Source of the DNA: Candidatus Heimdallarchaeota archaeon
GTDB lineage: Archaea > Asgardarchaeota > Heimdallarchaeia > Heimdallarchaeales > DAOWED01
NCBI GenBank assembly: GCA_030638685.1
Contig: DAOWED010000139.1
Location: 1 to 13,721, forward strand
Reading direction: 5' to 3'
DNA: 13,721 bases
The notes below the pieces were generated by a model. The model worked only from the letters and a program-made list of their open reading frames with translations. It was not told the origin of the DNA and ran no database searches. Below, piece by piece: positions 1,496-9,885 of the stretch. Made by a program: the position numbers and the translations under genes. How positions within the stretch are numbered: the first letter of the stretch is position 1; each line of letters begins with the position of its first letter.

Positions 1496-2932
1496 CTAAA
1501 AGTCTAGTTCTTCCTCTTCAAGAAAATATTCTTCATCTTGTTCTTCTTCAGGAAGTTCTAATTCTTTCTTTGTTAGACCATTAGTTTTTCGCACTTTATC
1601 GAGCATTCCGTTAATATCTAAACCAAACTGTTTACCGATAGCTAGAACTTGCATCATATTTTTAGGAACTATTCCTAGAGGAGATTCACTTGAAGAACCG
1701 TTTCCTCCAAGGTTCATCCAATTGATGTCGCCTACCTTCATTGATGAGGCAATTACAGGTAACTGGTCGATAAGCCTTTGCATAAGTACTGCTTCATTGA
1801 TCTGGTTTTGAGCATTAACTTTCTCTTTAAGACCTTCTGCTTCAGCAAGAAGAATGGCTTTATTGCCCTCTGCTTCTGCCATCATCTGCCCTTTACGAGC
1901 CTCAGCAACAATTTTAATCTGTTTAGCTTCAGCTTCTGCATCTTTCTCTCTTTGAATTAATGCAGTCTGAGCATCGATAGTTTTTTGCTCTTGCTCCTTA
2001 TTAGCTAGCTCAACTTGTTTTGCCATCTCAATCTTCATGAATTCAAGTTGTTTAACACGAACAGCTTCACCAACCTGTTGTTCACGGTTTTGGATAGCTA
2101 CTTCAACAGCTCTTTTCTTCTCTTGCTCAGTAAGATCTAATATTCTTTGCTGATCAACAACTGCTTTATCTCTAACAAGTTCTCTAACTTTAGCAATTTG
2201 GTCTTGCTCAGCTTGATAAGTCCTTGTTTCATTACTGGCTAGTGATTCAGCCTTAGCAATTTTGAGGCTTTTTTTAATAGCCATCTCTTGGATATCTCTT
2301 TCAGTTGAAATGCTGATTTCCTGAGCAGTTCTTCTTTTCTCATTCTCAAAGGGAGCTTGTAAATCATTGAAGAGTTCCTGGTTTACAACGGTAACATCGC
2401 GAACCTCAACTGTTTCAATTGATACACCCCAGCTTTCGACAATGGGAGTTACTTCGCTCATTATTGATTCAATAATGATACTTCTTTCTCTCAAAATTTG
2501 TTCAAGAGTCATGTTAGCGACAGCTGTTCTGATTACTGCTTCAACAATTTGTTCTAATGTTACTGAAATGCTAGTCATTGCTGTTGTTCCAATAGCTTTG
2601 AAAGCCATTTCAGGTTCCATAATTCTCCATACAATAAATCCTCTGACAATAATCTCTTGGTTTTCCTTTGAGATCACTTTATCAGAAGCTGAAATATCAA
2701 CTGTTTGAATTGCTGTTGAAAGGACCACAATGTGGTCGACTATCGGTAAGAGAAAAACTCCTCCTCCATAAGAAGCAGTTTTCAGTTTACCTGATCGGAA
2801 ATGAAGTACGAATTCATTTGATGTAAATATTTTATAGCGATTCTTGAAAATAATGATAAGCATTAGTGATACGAATAAAATGCTCATAACTATTAAGAAC
2901 GCTGGATGCATTATTAATGTGCTAAATTCCAT
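1496..2932 (-). CDS. Flotillin-like SPFH/band-7 domain membrane protein (FloT/YuaG-like).
   Basis: The ORF is 478 aa. An N-terminal hydrophobic hairpin is followed by an SPFH-like beta-rich domain. A long coiled-coil with Glu/Ala-rich flotillin-type repeats (AEAEAKQIKIVAEARKGQMMAEAEGNKAILLAEAEGL) follows. It ends in an acidic C-terminal tail. The ATG is preceded by the strong SD GGAGGA (2942-2947) with 9-nt spacing. It sits immediately downstream of the NfeD-like gene, which is the conserved SPFH-NfeD arrangement. Confidence 0.85.
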   Translation of the reverse strand: MEFSTLIMHPAFLIVMSILFVSLMLIIIFKNRYKIFTSNEFVLHFRSGKLKTASYGGGVFLLPIVDHIVVLSTAIQTVDISASDKVISKENQEIIVRGFIVWRIMEPEMAFKAIGTTAMTSISVTLEQIVEAVIRTAVANMTLEQILRERSIIIESIMSEVTPIVESWGVSIETVEVRDVTVVNQELFNDLQAPFENEKRRTAQEISISTERDIQEMAIKKSLKIAKAESLASNETRTYQAEQDQIAKVRELVRDKAVVDQQRILDLTEQEKKRAVEVAIQNREQQVGEAVRVKQLEFMKIEMAKQVELANKEQEQKTIDAQTALIQREKDAEAEAKQIKIVAEARKGQMMAEAEGNKAILLAEAEGLKEKVNAQNQINEAVLMQRLIDQLPVIASSMKVGDINWMNLGGNGSSSESPLGIVPKNMMQVLAIGKQFGLDINGMLDKVRKTNGLTKKELELPEEEQDEEYFLEEEELDF

Positions 2933-2934
2933 TT

Positions 2935-3807
2935 TTAGTATTCCTCCGAATAATTAGTTTTTTTGTTTGTTTTCTTTTTTTGAGTTTGAGTTTGTGAGGT
3001 TGATCTCCCTCTATATAAACGAGTGATAACTAGATGTTCTCCTAGAATAGCTTTGTAGACCAAAGCCTTCTCTCCAGCTTGAATATTGTCAAATGGAGAA
3101 GCACCAATAGCTATTGATTTTCTAACAGCTCCATCAGGAGTTGTAAGGAGAACTAGCCCTGGTTTCTCATGAGTAACTCCGTAAACTACCTTGACATACT
3201 GTCCTGGTGCTGCTTTTCTAACAGGAGTTACGTAAGCTTTTGTCATTTTCTTGAGTAGAAAATTAAAGCCCCAATAACAGAAGTATGCAAAAAGCAGAAC
3301 TAGCCCTATTCCAAGGTCGCTTCGTCCGTAGGTTTCGAGTAAACCCAATCCACCTAACCCGTAAACCATACAAAAAGTAGCTATTCCACCAATTAAACTA
3401 CCTGACCCTTCAATTTCTACTGTTCCAGCTGACCCATCAACTGCAATAGTACCAAACCCAATATCGGGATCAACTTCTTGGTCTAAGTCTATCTCTTTGT
3501 CAAAGTCTAGCTCATGATCTAAGTCTATCTCTTTGTCAAAGTCTAGCTCATGATCTAAGTCTAAGTCATGATCTAAGTCTAGCTCATGATCTAAGTCTAA
3601 GTCATGATCTAAGTCTAAATCGTGATCAATGTCTAAGTCTTGGTCTAGATCTGTTCCTGCTTCGTGCTCAATTTCATGCTCGTGTTCTGCCATTTCACTT
3701 GCAATGAAACTTATTAAGTAAATGAAAAAGAACGTTAACCCAAACACGGCCATTCCTGCTGTGAAACCGTATAACCAATCGTAGGGGATTAGTTCTACTA
3801 GCGTCAT
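2935..3807 (-). CDS. NfeD-like membrane protein (short NfeD/YuaF type) carrying an internal His/Asp-rich hexapeptide repeat insert.
   Basis: The ORF is 290 aa. An N-terminal TM helix is followed by a ~75-aa acidic (H/D)(E/D)LDLD repeat region. Hydrophobic Gly-rich TM segments follow. The C-terminal segment (YVTPVRKAAPGQYVKVVYGVTHEKPGLVLLTTPDGAVRKSIAIG...LVITRLY) looks like the NfeD C-terminal beta-barrel (OB-fold) domain. Its position directly upstream of and coupled to a flotillin gene is the canonical NfeD-SPFH pairing. Confidence 0.75.
   Translation of the reverse strand: MTLVELIPYDWLYGFTAGMAVFGLTFFFIYLISFIASEMAEHEHEIEHEAGTDLDQDLDIDHDLDLDHDLDLDHELDLDHDLDLDHELDFDKEIDLDHELDFDKEIDLDQEVDPDIGFGTIAVDGSAGTVEIEGSGSLIGGIATFCMVYGLGGLGLLETYGRSDLGIGLVLLFAYFCYWGFNFLLKKMTKAYVTPVRKAAPGQYVKVVYGVTHEKPGLVLLTTPDGAVRKSIAIGASPFDNIQAGEKALVYKAILGEHLVITRLYRGRSTSQTQTQKKKTNKKTNYSEEY
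2942..2947 (-). promoter_or_regulatory. Shine-Dalgarno GGAGGA for the flotillin-like gene, embedded in the 3' end of the NfeD-like gene.
   Basis: GGAGGA lies on the minus strand 9 nt upstream of the ATG at 2932. The NfeD stop TAA (2935-2937) ends 2 nt before that ATG, indicating translational coupling. Confidence 0.5.
3478..3648. repeat. Near-perfect tandem DNA repeats (36-bp unit x2, then 18-bp units x4) encoding the HDLDLD/HELDFDKEIDLD peptide repeats of the NfeD-like protein.
   Basis: Direct reading shows gatctaagtctatctctttgtcaaagtctagctcat twice. It is followed by alternating gatctaagtctaagtcat / gatctaagtctagctcat units and a degenerate gatctaagtctaaatcgt unit. Confidence 0.85.
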
Positions 3808-4108: not shown

Positions 4109-4660
4109 TTAGCGGAAAAAAGAATTAATCCAATTGGAAGCATGTACCTTAGCAGCTTCTAATGAATCAGTAGTGAGTAAGTCTATAGGAAGAGTATTTT
4201 CTTCGCAAACTTTAACATGATATTTCTTTTCAGTAATTTCGTTTTCAGGAAGGGAAAGCAAGTTCAGAAGTAGTCTAAGACGATTCTTTAGATTAGCTGG
4301 ATTAGTTATTTGAAAAATATCATTCAAATAATCTGAAGTAAGGGCTACTACATTGACCTTTGAGAAACTGATAACAGGTTTATCTAAAGGAAGAGTTACT
4401 AATGAAATTCTCTCATCTCTTGAAAAATCTCTTTTCTCAGGGTAATAAAATAATAAACCAGATCCGTTTTTGTGAATATACTTCAGAAGGGGTAAAATTC
4501 TTAGTAACCAATCATTTAGTGCCCAATGTTCAATACAAAGAACTCCCTTAAAAGGACGCCATTCCTCGTTTTCAAGTAGTTCCCCTTTAAGTTCATATTC
4601 TTCAGGAGTTGAAATCAACTCTTTGTCAGTTATTATTTCGTTTGCATTATTTTCAACCAT
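4109..4660 (-). CDS. Hypothetical protein, 183 aa, with no recognisable domain.
   Basis: A long ORF in AT-rich DNA that is divergent from the 4851 gene cluster. I recognise no motifs. It is probably cytoplasmic, as it has no TM segment. Confidence 0.55.
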   Translation of the reverse strand: MVENNANEIITDKELISTPEEYELKGELLENEEWRPFKGVLCIEHWALNDWLLRILPLLKYIHKNGSGLLFYYPEKRDFSRDERISLVTLPLDKPVISFSKVNVVALTSDYLNDIFQITNPANLKNRLRLLLNLLSLPENEITEKKYHVKVCEENTLPIDLLTTDSLEAAKVHASNWINSFFR

Positions 4661-4810
4661 TTGCCCGACCTCATAAATGTTACGTATTAGATATATTTGA
4701 ACTAGTTTTTAATTATTTGCCCTATTTTTCCAAAAAAAAGTAAAAATCAAAAAAAACCATTTTACTGCAAAACAAATGAAAAAAAGTCTGAGAAATCCCT
4801 TGGCAAATCT

Positions 4811-4840
4811 TTAATTAGGTGTTTGCATTAATTTTATACG
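4811..4840 (+). promoter_or_regulatory. Candidate promoter for the Cys-rich protein A gene. It contains TATA-like elements (TTAATTAGG, ATTAATTTTATAC).
   Basis: A/T elements lie 11-40 nt upstream of the ATG at 4851. A possible weak SD-like AAGGGT sits 5 nt upstream of the ATG. This is a shared divergent intergenic region with the 4109-4660 gene. Confidence 0.25.
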
Positions 4841-4850
4841 GTTAAGGGTT

Positions 4851-5258
4851 ATGTCAAATTTTGAAGAAGATAAAGATCATTCGTGTGGAAATTGTGTTCA
4901 TTTATGTCCTAATTTCACATGTGCTTTAGAAATCAGGGGAAGAATTAAGGCTTCTGAAATTTTTTTGAGAGGGAAATTTTGTCCTGAATGGCAATATAAT
5001 GACCCCAATAGAGACAAACTGGAAAGTGTTTATCAAGCAAGTTTTCCATATGAAGAGCTTAAAGAGAAAGTAAAAAATGACTTTATTCTAGATAAAAAAG
5101 TTATCGAGATTATCTGCGAAAAAGGGGAAATATCGATGAATGACCTTATGACGGAAACAAAGCCATTTGAAGATTTACTTGGGGAATCGATAACAATTGA
5201 TCAATTGTATAAAATCTGTGAAAGATACAATTGCTTAAAACTAGTTAAAAAATTATAG
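4851..5258 (+). CDS. Cys-rich small protein, paralog A (135 aa). It has an N-terminal C-x2-C-x3-C-P-N-x2-C ... C-P-x-W block and a helical C-terminal half. Function is uncharacterised.
   Basis: It shares ~40% identity overall with the 5830-6240 product. The N-terminal ~55 aa are near-identical in pattern (CxNCxxLCPNxxCAxxIRGxIKxxxIxLRGKxCPxWxYNDP). I could not assign a known family by eye. Confidence 0.75.
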   Translation: MSNFEEDKDHSCGNCVHLCPNFTCALEIRGRIKASEIFLRGKFCPEWQYNDPNRDKLESVYQASFPYEELKEKVKNDFILDKKVIEIICEKGEISMNDLMTETKPFEDLLGESITIDQLYKICERYNCLKLVKKL

Positions 5259-5264
5259 AGAGGA
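5258..5264 (+). promoter_or_regulatory. Shine-Dalgarno GAGAGGA for the V4R-like gene.
   Basis: It lies 5 nt upstream of the ATG at 5270. It overlaps the stop codon of gene A (TAG at 5256-5258), which implies co-transcription and coupling of genes A and V4R. Confidence 0.5.
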
Positions 5265-5269
5265 TAAAA

Positions 5270-5761
5270 ATGAGATTTTTCAGAAGACAAAGCAAAAGGG
5301 ATGCGTCAAAAGATTACTTGAATAGGATGGTAATTGGTTTAGGAGCTGGACTGGTAAAAGCTAGAGCGTTCATAATCAACGAAGATTTTGGTCCACAAGG
5401 AACAATGGATGTGCTTGCCACCTGGATGGGACAAGAAATAGGAAAAGAAATGCTAGATAGAAATATCTTAACAAGTAACTCCACTTATGAAGAAATAATT
5501 GAAAAAATGCTCAATGAATTGAATTTAGCAGATGGGATATCAACACAATTCACAAACGATGAAGCACGAATCGTTGTCAAAGAATGTCTCATTTGTCCTA
5601 GAAGAGTGGGAAATTATGATTTGGAAAGATACACTTCATGCCCAGTTGGCGGATTAATAAGAGGAGTAATAAATTCAATAAGCGGAAAAAGCCCACAATT
5701 AACAAGTATTGATTATAATCCCGCAGAAGAATGTGAAGTCAAGATAAATCTTCAAGAGTAA
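5270..5761 (+). CDS. V4R-like (4-vinyl reductase / Bet3-like small-molecule-binding fold) Cys-containing protein, 163 aa.
   Basis: The C-terminal segment KECLICPRRVGNYDLERYTSCPVGGLIRGVINSISGK...EECEV matches my recollection of the V4R consensus. That consensus is E-x-C-x2-C-x-G ... p-v-C-h-f-x-G-f-i-x-G ... E-x-C. The gene lies between the two Cys-rich paralogs. Confidence 0.6.
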   Translation: MRFFRRQSKRDASKDYLNRMVIGLGAGLVKARAFIINEDFGPQGTMDVLATWMGQEIGKEMLDRNILTSNSTYEEIIEKMLNELNLADGISTQFTNDEARIVVKECLICPRRVGNYDLERYTSCPVGGLIRGVINSISGKSPQLTSIDYNPAEECEVKINLQE

Positions 5762-5829
5762 AGCCACAAAAGGAATACAAGCTGAAAACCTTAATAAGCG
5801 GAAATATAATTATTACATGGTTAATTAAA

Positions 5830-6240
5830 ATGACTGGATTTCACGAAAAATTAGCTCAAACATGCGAAAACTGCTTTTTCCTATGTCCAAATTATCAATG
5901 TGCAAAAAAAATAAGAGGAGTCATCAAGAAAGAACAGATTCACTTAAGGGGTAAATATTGCCCTGTGTGGGAATATAATGATCCTGAAAAAGCACTTGGA
6001 GAATCTACTTACAAATCGATTCTATCCTTTGACAAAATTATGGACAAGGTTAAACTTGAAGATTTTCTCGATTTAAAAGTCTTGGAACTGGTTTGTGCTT
6101 CTGCAATAGTAACAATTAGACAACTTCAAGAGTTAATTGAACCATTTGAAGCGTTGCTTATTGATGATGTAACATTTACACTTTTAGCAAGCATATTAGA
6201 CCGGTTTTATGAAGGTATGCTTGTAGAGAAGGTAAATTGA
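5830..6240 (+). CDS. Cys-rich small protein, paralog B (136 aa), with the same conserved N-terminal Cys block as paralog A.
   Basis: The protein MTGFHEKLAQTCENCFFLCPNYQCAKKIRGVIKKEQIHLRGKYCPVWEYNDPE... aligns position-for-position with paralog A. The TATA-like AAATATAATTATTA lies ~17-30 nt upstream. Confidence 0.75.
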   Translation: MTGFHEKLAQTCENCFFLCPNYQCAKKIRGVIKKEQIHLRGKYCPVWEYNDPEKALGESTYKSILSFDKIMDKVKLEDFLDLKVLELVCASAIVTIRQLQELIEPFEALLIDDVTFTLLASILDRFYEGMLVEKVN

Positions 6241-6309
6241 ACAATTGAACTTATGGGAGAAGCTTTTTCTAGATATTTTGCTGGGCTAATAAAAAATAAG
6301 TTAAATTAA

Positions 6310-6337
6310 TTTTTGATAGATTTTTTATTCTTTTTTT
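6310..6337 (+). terminator. Cluster of oligo-T runs (T5, T6, T7) downstream of the Cys-rich/V4R module.
   Basis: The sequence tttttgatagattttttattcttttttt lies 70-100 nt after the stop at 6240. It is of archaeal oligo-T terminator type. Confidence 0.35.
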
Positions 6338-6427: not shown

Positions 6428-6619
6428 TTAGTATCTGTCTCGGGGAGGTCTTCTTTTACGATAGCAATCTTTGCAGTAAACAGGTCTTTCTGGGTCGGGA
6501 ACAAAAGGAACTTGAGTTTCTTCTCCACAATCAGCACAAGTGGCGTCGTGCATTTCTCTTGGTTCTCGGGATCTATTTCCACCGTATCTATCGTTACTTC
6601 GTCTGTCTCTATAACTCAT
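6428..6619 (-). CDS. Small basic C4 zinc-ribbon protein (63 aa) with the motif CADCG-x-ET-x-VPF-x-P-x3-RPVYC-x-DCY.
   Basis: The protein carries CxxC-x17-CxxC within the strongly conserved VPF...RPVYC signature. This is a widespread short zinc-ribbon found in archaea and bacteria, often fused to RNA-binding/helicase proteins. Both termini are Arg-rich. The frame and stop were verified by hand. The overlapping plus-strand ORF 6406-6645 is rejected. Confidence 0.8.
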   Translation of the reverse strand: MSYRDRRSNDRYGGNRSREPREMHDATCADCGEETQVPFVPDPERPVYCKDCYRKRRPPRDRY

Positions 6620-8015: not shown

Positions 8016-9194
8016 ATGACAATTTTACTACCATTAATCTGTATAGTCTATGGCATACCGATTCTCGTAGTTTTGTCATCTTTAATTCGTTTGTATATCC
8101 AAAATAAAGCGAATTCATCTCTTTTATTGATTATTTTTGTTCTTAGTTTATCAGTATGGTTATTTTCATCCCTTCCTTGGCAACTTGACTTGAATGTTGA
8201 AGAAGAAGTAGTACAAATCTTGTTTAAGATAGGTGTAATTTGTGGTTCGGTAGGGCTAATTACTTTAATGATGATTTTCTCAAGATCATATATCTCATAT
8301 AAAGTGAGTATACTGGCCAGAATAGCAATAACGTTTTATTTAATTGTTATAGGGATAGCAATCTCTTCTATTGCTGAGCCTGAAAATGAATTCTACAATC
8401 TTATTAGAGTAGTAGAAAATTGGGAAGCCACTTATCATCCATTGATTTTTTACATAATAAATCTTGCACATTTATTCTTCTTAGCTTCACTCGTACTTGG
8501 AGTAAGGGATCTAAATTCTCTTCCTGAGCATTTAATGGAGCCAAGAAATAAGACGATAAACACTTTAATTGCATTTACATTCGTTATAACCTTAATAACA
8601 AACTCATTATTTTTCATTCTTGATCCAATTTATGGCATAATTTCTCGTTTAATGGTTATTCTGATTGTTTTATTTCTGGCATATTATGTAGCCCATGAAC
8701 CGATAATGGTTTTTTTTGATATCTCTAACCCTAAAAAAATCATAAAAGAAGGATATATTGGTTACTCATTATCAGCTTTGACACAATTGGGACCCTCACC
8801 AATACACTACTCTGAGGCGTTTAATAACCGTTTTAAAATTGAAGCTTCTGAAATGGTAACAAATTCAATTTTAAGCTTAACAGTAGTGAGCTCTTCTAAA
8901 GATTTGGAAGAAACAGTCATTATGCTTCCTTTTGCAAAAAAAGATGATATTGTATCACTAAATATTTCATTTACAATGTACGATCCAACGTTTGATGACC
9001 CAAGACATAATAATATGAATATGTGTGTGATCGCAATTCTAATACCATATTTCAAGGCATCACTAAGAAATGTAAAGAAACTTCAAGCAGTAATTAGAAC
9101 TGAATTAGAAAAAATACCTGAGCTTTCAAAGTTTACAGAAGAGAATTTGGTTGAGATAGTAGCACAAGCACTGACGACTATAGAACTAGTTTAA
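8016..9194 (+). CDS. Polytopic membrane protein (~7 TM in the N-terminal 230 aa) with a ~160-aa C-terminal soluble domain. Function unknown.
   Basis: The 392-aa ORF has a strongly hydrophobic N-terminal two-thirds with regularly spaced helices. The C-terminal part is hydrophilic (KIIKEGYIGY...TTIELV). No family is recognised. Confidence 0.6.
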   Translation: MTILLPLICIVYGIPILVVLSSLIRLYIQNKANSSLLLIIFVLSLSVWLFSSLPWQLDLNVEEEVVQILFKIGVICGSVGLITLMMIFSRSYISYKVSILARIAITFYLIVIGIAISSIAEPENEFYNLIRVVENWEATYHPLIFYIINLAHLFFLASLVLGVRDLNSLPEHLMEPRNKTINTLIAFTFVITLITNSLFFILDPIYGIISRLMVILIVLFLAYYVAHEPIMVFFDISNPKKIIKEGYIGYSLSALTQLGPSPIHYSEAFNNRFKIEASEMVTNSILSLTVVSSSKDLEETVIMLPFAKKDDIVSLNISFTMYDPTFDDPRHNNMNMCVIAILIPYFKASLRNVKKLQAVIRTELEKIPELSKFTEENLVEIVAQALTTIELV

Positions 9195-9530
9195 TTTTTC
9201 TTTTTTAATAACATACTTTTCTTCCCACCTAGGATACTCCTCTTTAGATAATAATAGATATTCAAATGGGTGATTAAGCGGAAAATTGGATTTTTCATCT
9301 ATTTCAGCAATTATTGCAGCTCTTTCTATTTGCCTTTTTGGAATATCTCCTACAATTGCTATATCGATATCACTTCCTCCAACGAGTTTTCCTTCAAGAG
9401 CACTTCCAAAAAGATAAATTTCAGGATCATTAAGTACTGATTTTATACTCTCAACCATTATTGGAAGATATTTCCTGAAATTAAAAAGCATTTCCAGTCT
9501 TACTTTTTCAGCTTCCGATATTTTTAACAA
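9186..9530 (-). CDS. Minimal nucleotidyltransferase (MNT / MntA-like), probable antitoxin partner of the adjacent HEPN protein.
   Basis: The 114-aa ORF carries LFGSALEGKLVGGSDIDIAIV, a textbook pol-beta-type NTase motif (hG[GS]-x9-13-Dh[DE]h). It overlaps the upstream HEPN ORF by 23 nt. Confidence 0.75.
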   Translation of the reverse strand: MLKISEAEKVRLEMLFNFRKYLPIMVESIKSVLNDPEIYLFGSALEGKLVGGSDIDIAIVGDIPKRQIERAAIIAEIDEKSNFPLNHPFEYLLLSKEEYPRWEEKYVIKKEKLN

Positions 9531-9885
9531 GTAATGTCAACTCCTCTGCAATCAAGATGGCCCTTTCAGCATCTTCTTTTTCGTATTGGAAATCCATGTA
9601 CCTTGCTGTAATATGTGCTCCTTCAAGAAAGATGAGTAGCTCTCGGTCATAAGTAAGTTCAGTATTAGCTGCATCGTTTAAGATTGATATTAGCTGTCTT
9701 AATGAGTGAATTTTTGGAGTGGCTCCTGTGAATTCTAGTATTTTAGCTTCTAGATATAACTGAACTGATTGCACTGCTAAAAAACATGTCAAATCCCAGT
9801 CATCACTTTCAAATCTTTGTTTTGCACCTTCTAAGAAATTGTTACCTCTTTTTAGCAATAAATTTACTTCATCACTTTGACTCAT
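9508..9885 (-). CDS. HEPN-domain protein (HepT-like), probable toxin partner of the MNT.
   Basis: The 125-aa ORF is all-helical. The segment CFLAVQSVQLYLEAKILEF resembles the conserved HEPN helix (a.f.a.QaaE..lKa.l). A C-terminal motif region LEGAHITARYMD has conserved R and Y. It is paired and overlapping with an MNT gene. The assignment is weaker than for the MNT. Confidence 0.55.
   Translation of the reverse strand: MSQSDEVNLLLKRGNNFLEGAKQRFESDDWDLTCFLAVQSVQLYLEAKILEFTGATPKIHSLRQLISILNDAANTELTYDRELLIFLEGAHITARYMDFQYEKEDAERAILIAEELTLLVKNIGS

Follow-up and report, generated by a model that had tools for sequence, protein, structure and literature searches.

A Heimdallarchaeal three-gene locus as a candidate elaboration of an Asgard winged-helix/Bet3-fold gene pair

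A contig of Candidatus Heimdallarchaeota archaeon (DAOWED010000139.1, assembly GCA_030638685.1), analyzed here over a window of 13,721 nucleotides, carries three short genes in a row: two paralogues, A and B, which share a cysteine-rich N-terminal block, and between them gene M, whose product has a predicted TRAPPC3/Bet3/V4R fold. What kind of unit do these genes form, and what might it do? The original prediction, made from the letters of the window, proposed a sensor or redox-relay module that pairs two copies of the cysteine-rich domain with a V4R-like protein. Our comparative analysis points elsewhere: the part conserved across Asgard archaea is a pair, formed by a winged-helix partner gene and M. 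With moderate confidence, we regard A–M–B as a clade-specific elaboration of this two-gene cassette, most likely acting with a Ras/Rab-like GTPase as its regulator, effector or platform.

The nearest relatives of eukaryotes known so far are the Asgard archaea, and little is known about which of their "eukaryotic signature" proteins cooperate. The cassette offers a concrete conserved pairing: a predicted zinc protein of Bet3/TRAPPC3 fold with one specific winged-helix partner and, in the Thor and Borr lineages, also with one Ras/Rab-like GTPase. In MK-D1, genes for small GTPases do not as a rule share operons with those for roadblock, longin or TRAPPC3 proteins (PMC10933270), so that GTPases are hard to assign to regulators by genome layout.

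A winged-helix partner gene upstream of M

Loci were collected by exact-protein look-ups and by a scan of one genome per species, and their open reading frames (ORFs) were scored with hidden Markov models (HMMs) for M, the partner domains and the GTPase. De-replication at 95% identity left 22 M clusters, 20 of which have an assessable upstream flank. In every one of these 20, the gene that immediately precedes M on the same strand encodes a winged-helix domain, the gap usually being 3–15 nt, a tight spacing that suggests co-translation and a stoichiometric complex. The conserved unit is this pair and not the triad: B follows M only in the window and in one related locus (L001), and a downstream partner copy occurs in no other lineage among the 20 clusters. 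Upstream partners with the cysteine-rich block of A, together with M, are also present in two further loci (L002 and L031) and on short contigs, all within a narrow Heimdall clade. In four other Heimdall clusters, the partner consists of the winged helix alone (81–97 residues), and the pair is located among unrelated genes. The literature searched yielded no papers describing a cassette of a winged-helix partner and a protein of PF27343, the family of M, and none on PF27343 or MJ0207, after which the family is called.

The C-terminal halves of A and B had initially been described as helical and divergent. They do diverge (30% identity), but the emphasis was misplaced, as these halves constitute the ancient winged-helix domain that defines the partner family. 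For example, the Borrarchaeum gene directly upstream of an M homologue shares the C-terminal 75 residues of A behind a cysteine-free N-terminus, and the same sharing is seen upstream of M homologues in Thor, Jord and other loci. An HMM of this domain (~75 residues) matches both A (E = 1.5e-33) and B (E = 5.5e-26), with scores that are partly circular because the underlying alignment included the two proteins; independently of the HMM, BLAST finds the C-terminal domains of A and the Borr partner to be 47% identical. The winged helix of B shares 20–27% identity with those of Thor partners. A word-indexed search returned five close relatives of A, the family profile gathered 95 proteins, and searching 1.84 billion representatives exhaustively with a profile gave 210 matches. 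The family is unnamed and lacks a Pfam entry, and its comparison by sequence with solved structures produced nothing beyond noise at E ≤ 10.

At its N-terminus, the partner carries an accessory domain that varies between lineages: a C-x2-C...HGxPxH (CCHH-type) domain in Thor, a different, cysteine-free one in Borr and a five-cysteine (Cys5) domain in the clade of the window. The other Heimdall partners lack such a domain. Of the 95 family-profile proteins, 81 carry the CCHH-type domain, and Cys5 is restricted to those of the A type. The exhaustive search further revealed that the two halves of the partners are independent modules, with many CCHH-only proteins in other architectures and several proteins in which the winged-helix domain stands behind other N-termini.

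Both modules deserve a brief description. The C-x2-C...HGxPxH...R[VI]R domain, as carried by Thor-type partners, is widespread and has no Pfam entry, and more than 100 of the 150 representatives listed match it alone. Its carriers include tandem copies, proteins of 270–280 residues, the C-terminus of a 939-residue membrane protein and an extra Borrarchaeum gene (examples are P0141, P0147, P0148, P0171, P0183 and P0227, as well as L003 4252–4971). Winged-helix C-domains behind N-domains of 120–180 residues are found in P0137, P0159, P0146, P0149, P0150, P0194, P0139 and P0153. By eye, these N-domains, the P0146 type among them, and those of the Borr type resemble longin, roadblock or uDENN domains; these candidates were rejected, as neither Pfam nor PDB sequences supported them.

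The second member of the pair, M, has homologues that are 48–60% identical to it in metagenome-assembled genomes (MAGs) labeled as Heimdall, Thor, Jord and Borr. All 40 homologues found carry PF27343 (the MJ0207 family). M itself gave no match in the Pfam copy searched or in NCBIfam, and its membership is read through the precomputed matches of these homologues, which include P0006, a protein of a Candidatus Heimdallarchaeota MAG that is 99% identical to M. The family is therefore already catalogued; what is rare at this locus is the gain of Cys5 and the duplication of the partner.

In the predicted model, M comprises four helices and a four-stranded sheet in a two-layer alpha/beta arrangement that superposes on solved members of the V4R, TRAPP/Bet3 and H-NOX families. 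Its fold neighbors, with their comparison scores in brackets, are Thorarchaeota TRAPPC3 (7yh2; 10.3), TRAPPC5 (9.5), Trs31 (9.2), TRAPPC3 (9.2), PoxR (9.0), DmpR (8.9), H-NOX (8.8), BcsD (7.7) and the V4R protein MJ1460 (7.2). Foldseek recovers the same set, and the same neighbors were reported for Thor-TRAPPC3 (Tran et al, 2024; PMC10933270). The earlier label "V4R-like" is accurate for the modeled fold but not for the Pfam V4R model: neither V4R (PF02830) nor Bet3 (PF04051) matches M or any of 26 family members with the cutoff relaxed to E ≤ 10. Searching with an M-family profile likewise finds no PDB sequence at E ≤ 10, and identity to the closest fold, Thorarchaeota TRAPPC3 (PDB 7YH2 and 7YH3; PMC10933270), is only 15%. 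Judged by its model, M is a TRAPPC3/Bet3/V4R-fold protein, and the low identity and lack of a PDB match indicate a sequence family of its own.

Cysteines may be a further point of contact with these proteins. M had been credited with a cysteine pair; a cysteine-based site is indeed indicated, but it comprises four residues, C106, C109, C124 and C155, which are invariant in 26 sequences and lie at the end of strand 2, at the start of the helix spanning residues 125–138 and in strand 4. In the dimeric Thor-TRAPPC3 and PoxR, a four-cysteine zinc site ties the sheet to the last long helix over the ligand cavity, whereas eukaryotic TRAPPC3 has a hydrogen bond in its place (PMC10933270). The placement of the cysteines in M agrees with such a sheet-to-helix tether, and the metal is predicted by analogy.

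M also differs from its structural relatives in the company it keeps. No winged-helix partner or GTPase operon was described for TRAPPC3 by Tran et al (PMC10933270). The eukaryotic Bet3 family (TRAPPC3/Bet3, TRAPPC5/Trs31 and TRAPPC6/Trs33), whose Pfam model does not match M, assembles in TRAPP with other Bet3-family members and with longin subunits, whereas the partners of M are winged-helix proteins. Compared with V4R proteins (the sensors PoxR, DmpR and MopR, and MJ1460, PDB 2OSO), M lacks a fused AAA+ or helix-turn-helix (HTH) output, and its gene adjoins a separate one for an acidic winged helix. In L001 (2189–2542) and L002, which represent the nearest relative with a Cys5-type partner in two independent assemblies, part of the M gene is deleted internally and stops interrupt the frame: it reads MRFFRRQSKRDA, a stop and then a C-terminal ORF of 84 residues. 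Both loci retain an intact A, and L001 an intact B.

Linkage to small GTPases and the role of the pair

What the pair may act on is suggested by its surroundings. Of the 14 non-Heimdall clusters, 11 have a gene for a small GTPase upstream on the same strand, and one more has it 1.2 kb downstream in the opposite orientation. For each of the four GTPases scanned, Ras is the best-matching Pfam model (E = 1e-23 to 1e-32), followed by Roc and Arf, and the G1, G3 and G4 motifs of the cassette GTPases are mostly intact (the G4 pattern is unmatched in two). Those of the Thor group are 46–85% identical to each other, and those of Borr are ~32% identical to the Thor group. In the Borr loci, the extra gene with a CCHH-type domain is located between GTPase and partner.

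The cassette GTPases (L006 2056–2583, L013 634–1170, L022 3842–4378 and others) make up a coherent subgroup marked by an FDFGGQKQFRFF switch-II signature, most of them having T/NKxD as G4. One locus, L014, carries two tandem GTPase copies upstream of the partner.

In the reading that we favor, an acidic winged-helix adaptor, encoded just upstream of the four-cysteine TRAPPC3/Bet3/V4R-fold M, would form a stoichiometric heteromer with it. By analogy with Thor-TRAPPC3 and PoxR, M would probably carry a four-cysteine zinc site over a ligand cavity and dimerize, and the complex would act on a Ras/Rab-like GTPase in the way that Bet3-family subunits scaffold the TRAPP exchange factor. NPRL2 and NPRL3 (GATOR1/SEA) and other GTPase regulators with winged-helix modules are among the closest known systems. 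In the Heimdall clade of the window, the partner gained the 45-residue five-cysteine domain before its gene was duplicated, with A retaining the canonical upstream place and B, downstream, evolving faster in its winged helix. A and B could be alternative or simultaneous partners of M, in an asymmetric A–M2–B assembly or in separate A–M and B–M complexes. Cys5 may then add an input or a docking surface that is specific to the lineage and not required for the core function.

A more specific form of this proposal, which we put forward only tentatively, is that the pair represents a minimal pre-eukaryotic TRAPP-like regulator, serving as an exchange factor or GTPase-activating protein (GAP) platform of a dedicated GTPase, and that A–M–B is its three-subunit version with a redox or metal signal entering through Cys5. 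If true, this would be the first operon-defined pairing of a GTPase with a regulator for a Bet3-fold protein. The trio of GTPase, partner and Bet3-fold protein lends itself to a straightforward three-protein biochemical test.

Several points weigh against the favored reading. No GTPase gene is found in the flanks of the six Heimdall-type clusters, including the ORFs of the 13.7-kb window, so the link is made here by extension from Thor and Borr. The deletion of M in L001 and L002, next to intact A and B, suggests that A and B may work without full-length M. The synteny sample consists of M relatives of at least ~41% identity, obtained by pattern- and word-based searches. Finally, the name of the family implies that M has relatives in methanogens (MJ0207), a group not known for Rab-like GTPases, and this would speak for a more general ligand-binding role.

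The solitary state of the Heimdall pair, without a GTPase, would also suit a split one-component transcription regulator, in which M would serve as a V4R-type sensor of a hydrophobic ligand, akin to PoxR, DmpR and MopR, and control A and B as DNA-binding proteins. We consider this doubtful. The model HTH_24 does match A at residues 80–102, at E = 0.047 and with 13.7 bits against a cutoff of 21.9 bits, but no Pfam HTH model passes its threshold in 20 family members, and in Thor and Borr the same cassette resides within GTPase operons. Moreover, the winged helices are acidic, with isoelectric points of 4.83 in A (net charge −4), 4.34 in B (net charge −7) and 4.7–5.5 in the Heimdall partners that consist of the winged helix alone; the median net charge across the partner family is 0. 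This acidity is atypical for DNA-binding winged helix-turn-helix proteins and argues for protein binding. A and B do have the winged-helix fold, but this fold is a generic one, and the winged helices of cullin WHB, APC2, NPRL2/3 and RPA32C, which bind proteins, score just as well. DNA-binding factors of the MarR, Fur or TrmB type were accordingly rejected as counterparts of A and B, given the acidity and the lack of an HTH model match. Even if the split ligand sensor were the true answer, the cassette would still define an uncharacterized and widespread Asgard regulatory pair.

It is unlikely that M is a free-standing carrier of small molecules or lipids, as Tran et al speculated for Thor-TRAPPC3 (PMC10933270), with the winged-helix partner serving only in assembly or as a chaperone, and with the GTPase nearby by coincidence: its relatives TRAPPC3, PoxR and H-NOX hold hydrophobic ligands in an internal cavity (PMC10933270) and the Heimdall versions have no linked GTPase, but chance is hard to credit for a same-strand association that persists in most non-Heimdall clusters while the GTPases themselves have diverged to ~32% identity, and the varied N-terminal modules of the partner would be left unexplained.

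The Cys5 domain and the duplicated partner

Turning to what sets the window apart, A and B can be aligned from end to end without a gap, at 40% identity (E = 8e-38). Identity is unevenly distributed, reaching 62% in residues 11–52 and falling to 30% in residues 53–135, which agrees with the paralogy and near-invariant N-terminal cysteine block recognized at the outset. At the DNA level, the part encoding LRGK[FY]CPxWxYNDP forms a 41-nt direct repeat, 78% identical, in register and 979 nt apart. Its position upstream of M identifies A as orthologous to the canonical partner, and its winged helix is consensus-like. The divergence of the winged helix of B suggests that B has been sub- or neo-functionalized, perhaps to serve the other end or protomer of an M dimer. 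The window version is thus a natural experiment in subunit duplication, with one TRAPPC3-like protein and two diverged partners, and it adds an orphan five-cysteine domain without detectable relatives.

The motif of this domain stands essentially as first written, C-x2-C-x3-C-P-[ND]-x2-C ... IRG-x-IK ... RGK-x-C-P-x-W-x-[YF]-[ND]-D-P. Its five cysteines (C12, C15, C19, C24 and C44) are invariant in all six Cys5-domain sequences available, as are 14 further positions (L18, P20, I28, R29, G30, I32, K33, R40, G41, K42, P45, W47, D51 and P52). An HMM of the domain matches A with E = 2.9e-40 and B with E = 9.4e-37, and AlphaFold2 assigns a predicted local distance difference test (pLDDT) score below 50 across residues 1–47. 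Consistent with the view that the block falls outside known families, it has no significant match in Pfam, NCBIfam or PDB. We found it only in A/B-type proteins, among both the 95 family-profile proteins and the 150 listed of the 210 exhaustive matches, and a search for its patterns in 241 million metagenome records gave one extra locus only, 88% identical. The Cys5 block is a recent, clade-specific addition to the partner; it was acquired before the duplication and is under constraint, which accounts for its conservation in both paralogues. Its cysteines may bind a metal, either zinc or an Fe-S cluster.

Three known domains were considered as relatives of Cys5 and rejected. The "cysteine-rich small domain" PF04071 matches one of the six members only (E = 0.11). 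MAFFT co-aligned the CxxC motif of Cys5 with that of the Thor-type CCHH domain, as if Cys5 were a shortened version, but hhalign gives this relationship a probability of 1.2%, with a Cys5 profile so shallow (Neff 1.7) that distant homology could escape. As for ferredoxins, the C-x2-C-x3-C-P segment and the distal Cys-Pro recall the 4Fe-4S motif (Fer4, CxxCxxCxxxCP), but A/B-type proteins have D, E, A or S in place of its first cysteine and carry a single partial motif without a second cluster motif. The pattern was therefore rightly said not to be that of a classical ferredoxin, and the Fer4 score of 12.9 bits lies below the 21.1-bit cutoff.

These features bear on the original prediction itself, in which Cys5 domains, as Fe-S or redox-active Zn/thiol centers, would make the triad a redox-sensing or electron-relay unit around the V4R protein. 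Five invariant cysteines, two Cys-Pro pairs, a segment corresponding to the last three cysteines of the ferredoxin motif and an N-domain better conserved than the remainder all fit this reading, as do sub-threshold Fer4/Fer4_3 matches in two of the six members (E = 0.1–0.3). We nevertheless find it improbable. The database matches, including the PDB profile matches of the domain at E = 5–9, are all at chance level (E = 0.1–9). Genes for redox enzymes do not regularly accompany the cassette, a thioredoxin-like one being nearby only in L009 and L010. Nor can Cys5 be the core of the module, as it is dispensable: Thor partners have the CCHH-type domain in its place, Borr partners a cysteine-free one and other Heimdall partners none. 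What surrounds the cassette in Thor and Borr suggests a system with a Ras/Rab-like GTPase instead of a redox relay.

Gene layout, signals and neighboring genes

The three ORFs lie on the forward strand where the original prediction had placed them (Table 1), encoding 135, 163 and 136 residues, and both intergenic gaps, as well as the Shine-Dalgarno motif at the stop codon of A, are borne out by the sequence. Comparison with the L001 orthologues gives ratios of non-synonymous to synonymous substitution rates (dN/dS) of 0.17 (A), 0.22 (B) and, for the C-terminal half of M, which is the part remaining in L001, 0.09. These low values reflect purifying selection and indicate that A, M and B are all functional genes.

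Table 1. Coordinates of the features of the A–M–B locus within the window
Feature	Position	Strand	Basis
Gene A, 135-residue partner, Cys5 N-domain and winged-helix C-domain	4851..5258	+	ORF call, HMMs, dN/dS
Gene M, 163-residue PF27343 (MJ0207-family) protein, predicted TRAPPC3/Bet3/V4R fold	5270..5761	+	
Gene B, 136-residue lineage-specific paralogue of A	5830..6240	+	ORF call, HMMs, dN/dS
A residues 11–52, Cys5 putative metal-binding domain	4881..5006	+	Invariant columns, 62% identity to B
A residues 58–135, acidic winged-helix domain	5022..5255	+	
B residues 11–52, Cys5 domain	5860–5985	+	
B residues 58–136, winged helix, more diverged and more acidic than that of A	6001–6237	+	
M invariant cysteines C106, C109, C124 and C155	5585–5587, 5594–5596, 5639–5641, 5732–5734	+	
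AT-rich intergenic region, common to gene A and the divergent 183-residue gene	4661..4850	+	Sequence
A–M spacer, 11 nt, GAGG at 5260–5263 adjoining the TAG stop of A	5259..5269	+	Sequence
M–B spacer, 68 nt, without a T-run of 5 or more	5762..5829	+	Sequence
Four T5–T7 runs 3' of B	6264..6337	+	Sequence

The AT-rich region upstream of A is presumed to contain the promoter of the A–M–B unit, and the divergent arrangement around it is retained in L001 and L031. The GAGG beside the stop codon of A, together with the short spacer, suggests that A and M are probably translationally coupled. As the M–B spacer is free of such T-runs, B may be co-transcribed with M; it may also, or instead, have an AT-rich promoter of its own. 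Judging from the sequence, the T-runs beyond B likely represent an archaeal oligo-T termination zone of the unit. Rfam, tRNA and repeat scans found nothing besides the A/B paralogy.

The gene divergent from A (4109–4660, reverse strand) encodes 183 residues without a family match in Pfam or NCBIfam. It is retained beside the triad in L001 (78%) and beside the locus in L031, and it may belong to the same local unit. Convergent with B (6428–6619, reverse strand) is a gene for a basic protein of 63 residues with a CxxC-x17-CxxC treble-clef zinc finger (PF23477, E = 5e-20; TIGR04272), which is 94% conserved in L001.

Farther away, an SPFH/flotillin-like gene (Band_7, E = 5e-23) adjoins a gene for a membrane protein that contains an extended acidic repeat, (D-L-D-H-x)n (1496–3807, reverse strand); the latter is also kept in L001 and L031. 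The C-terminal part of another membrane protein of the window (8016–9194) was considered as a P0146-type module and rejected, as an HMM search gave no match. At 9186–9885 on the reverse strand, overlapping genes encode a nucleotidyltransferase (NTP_transf_2-like) and a HEPN protein, a pair that is also present in L001 and is typical of a toxin–antitoxin-like module.

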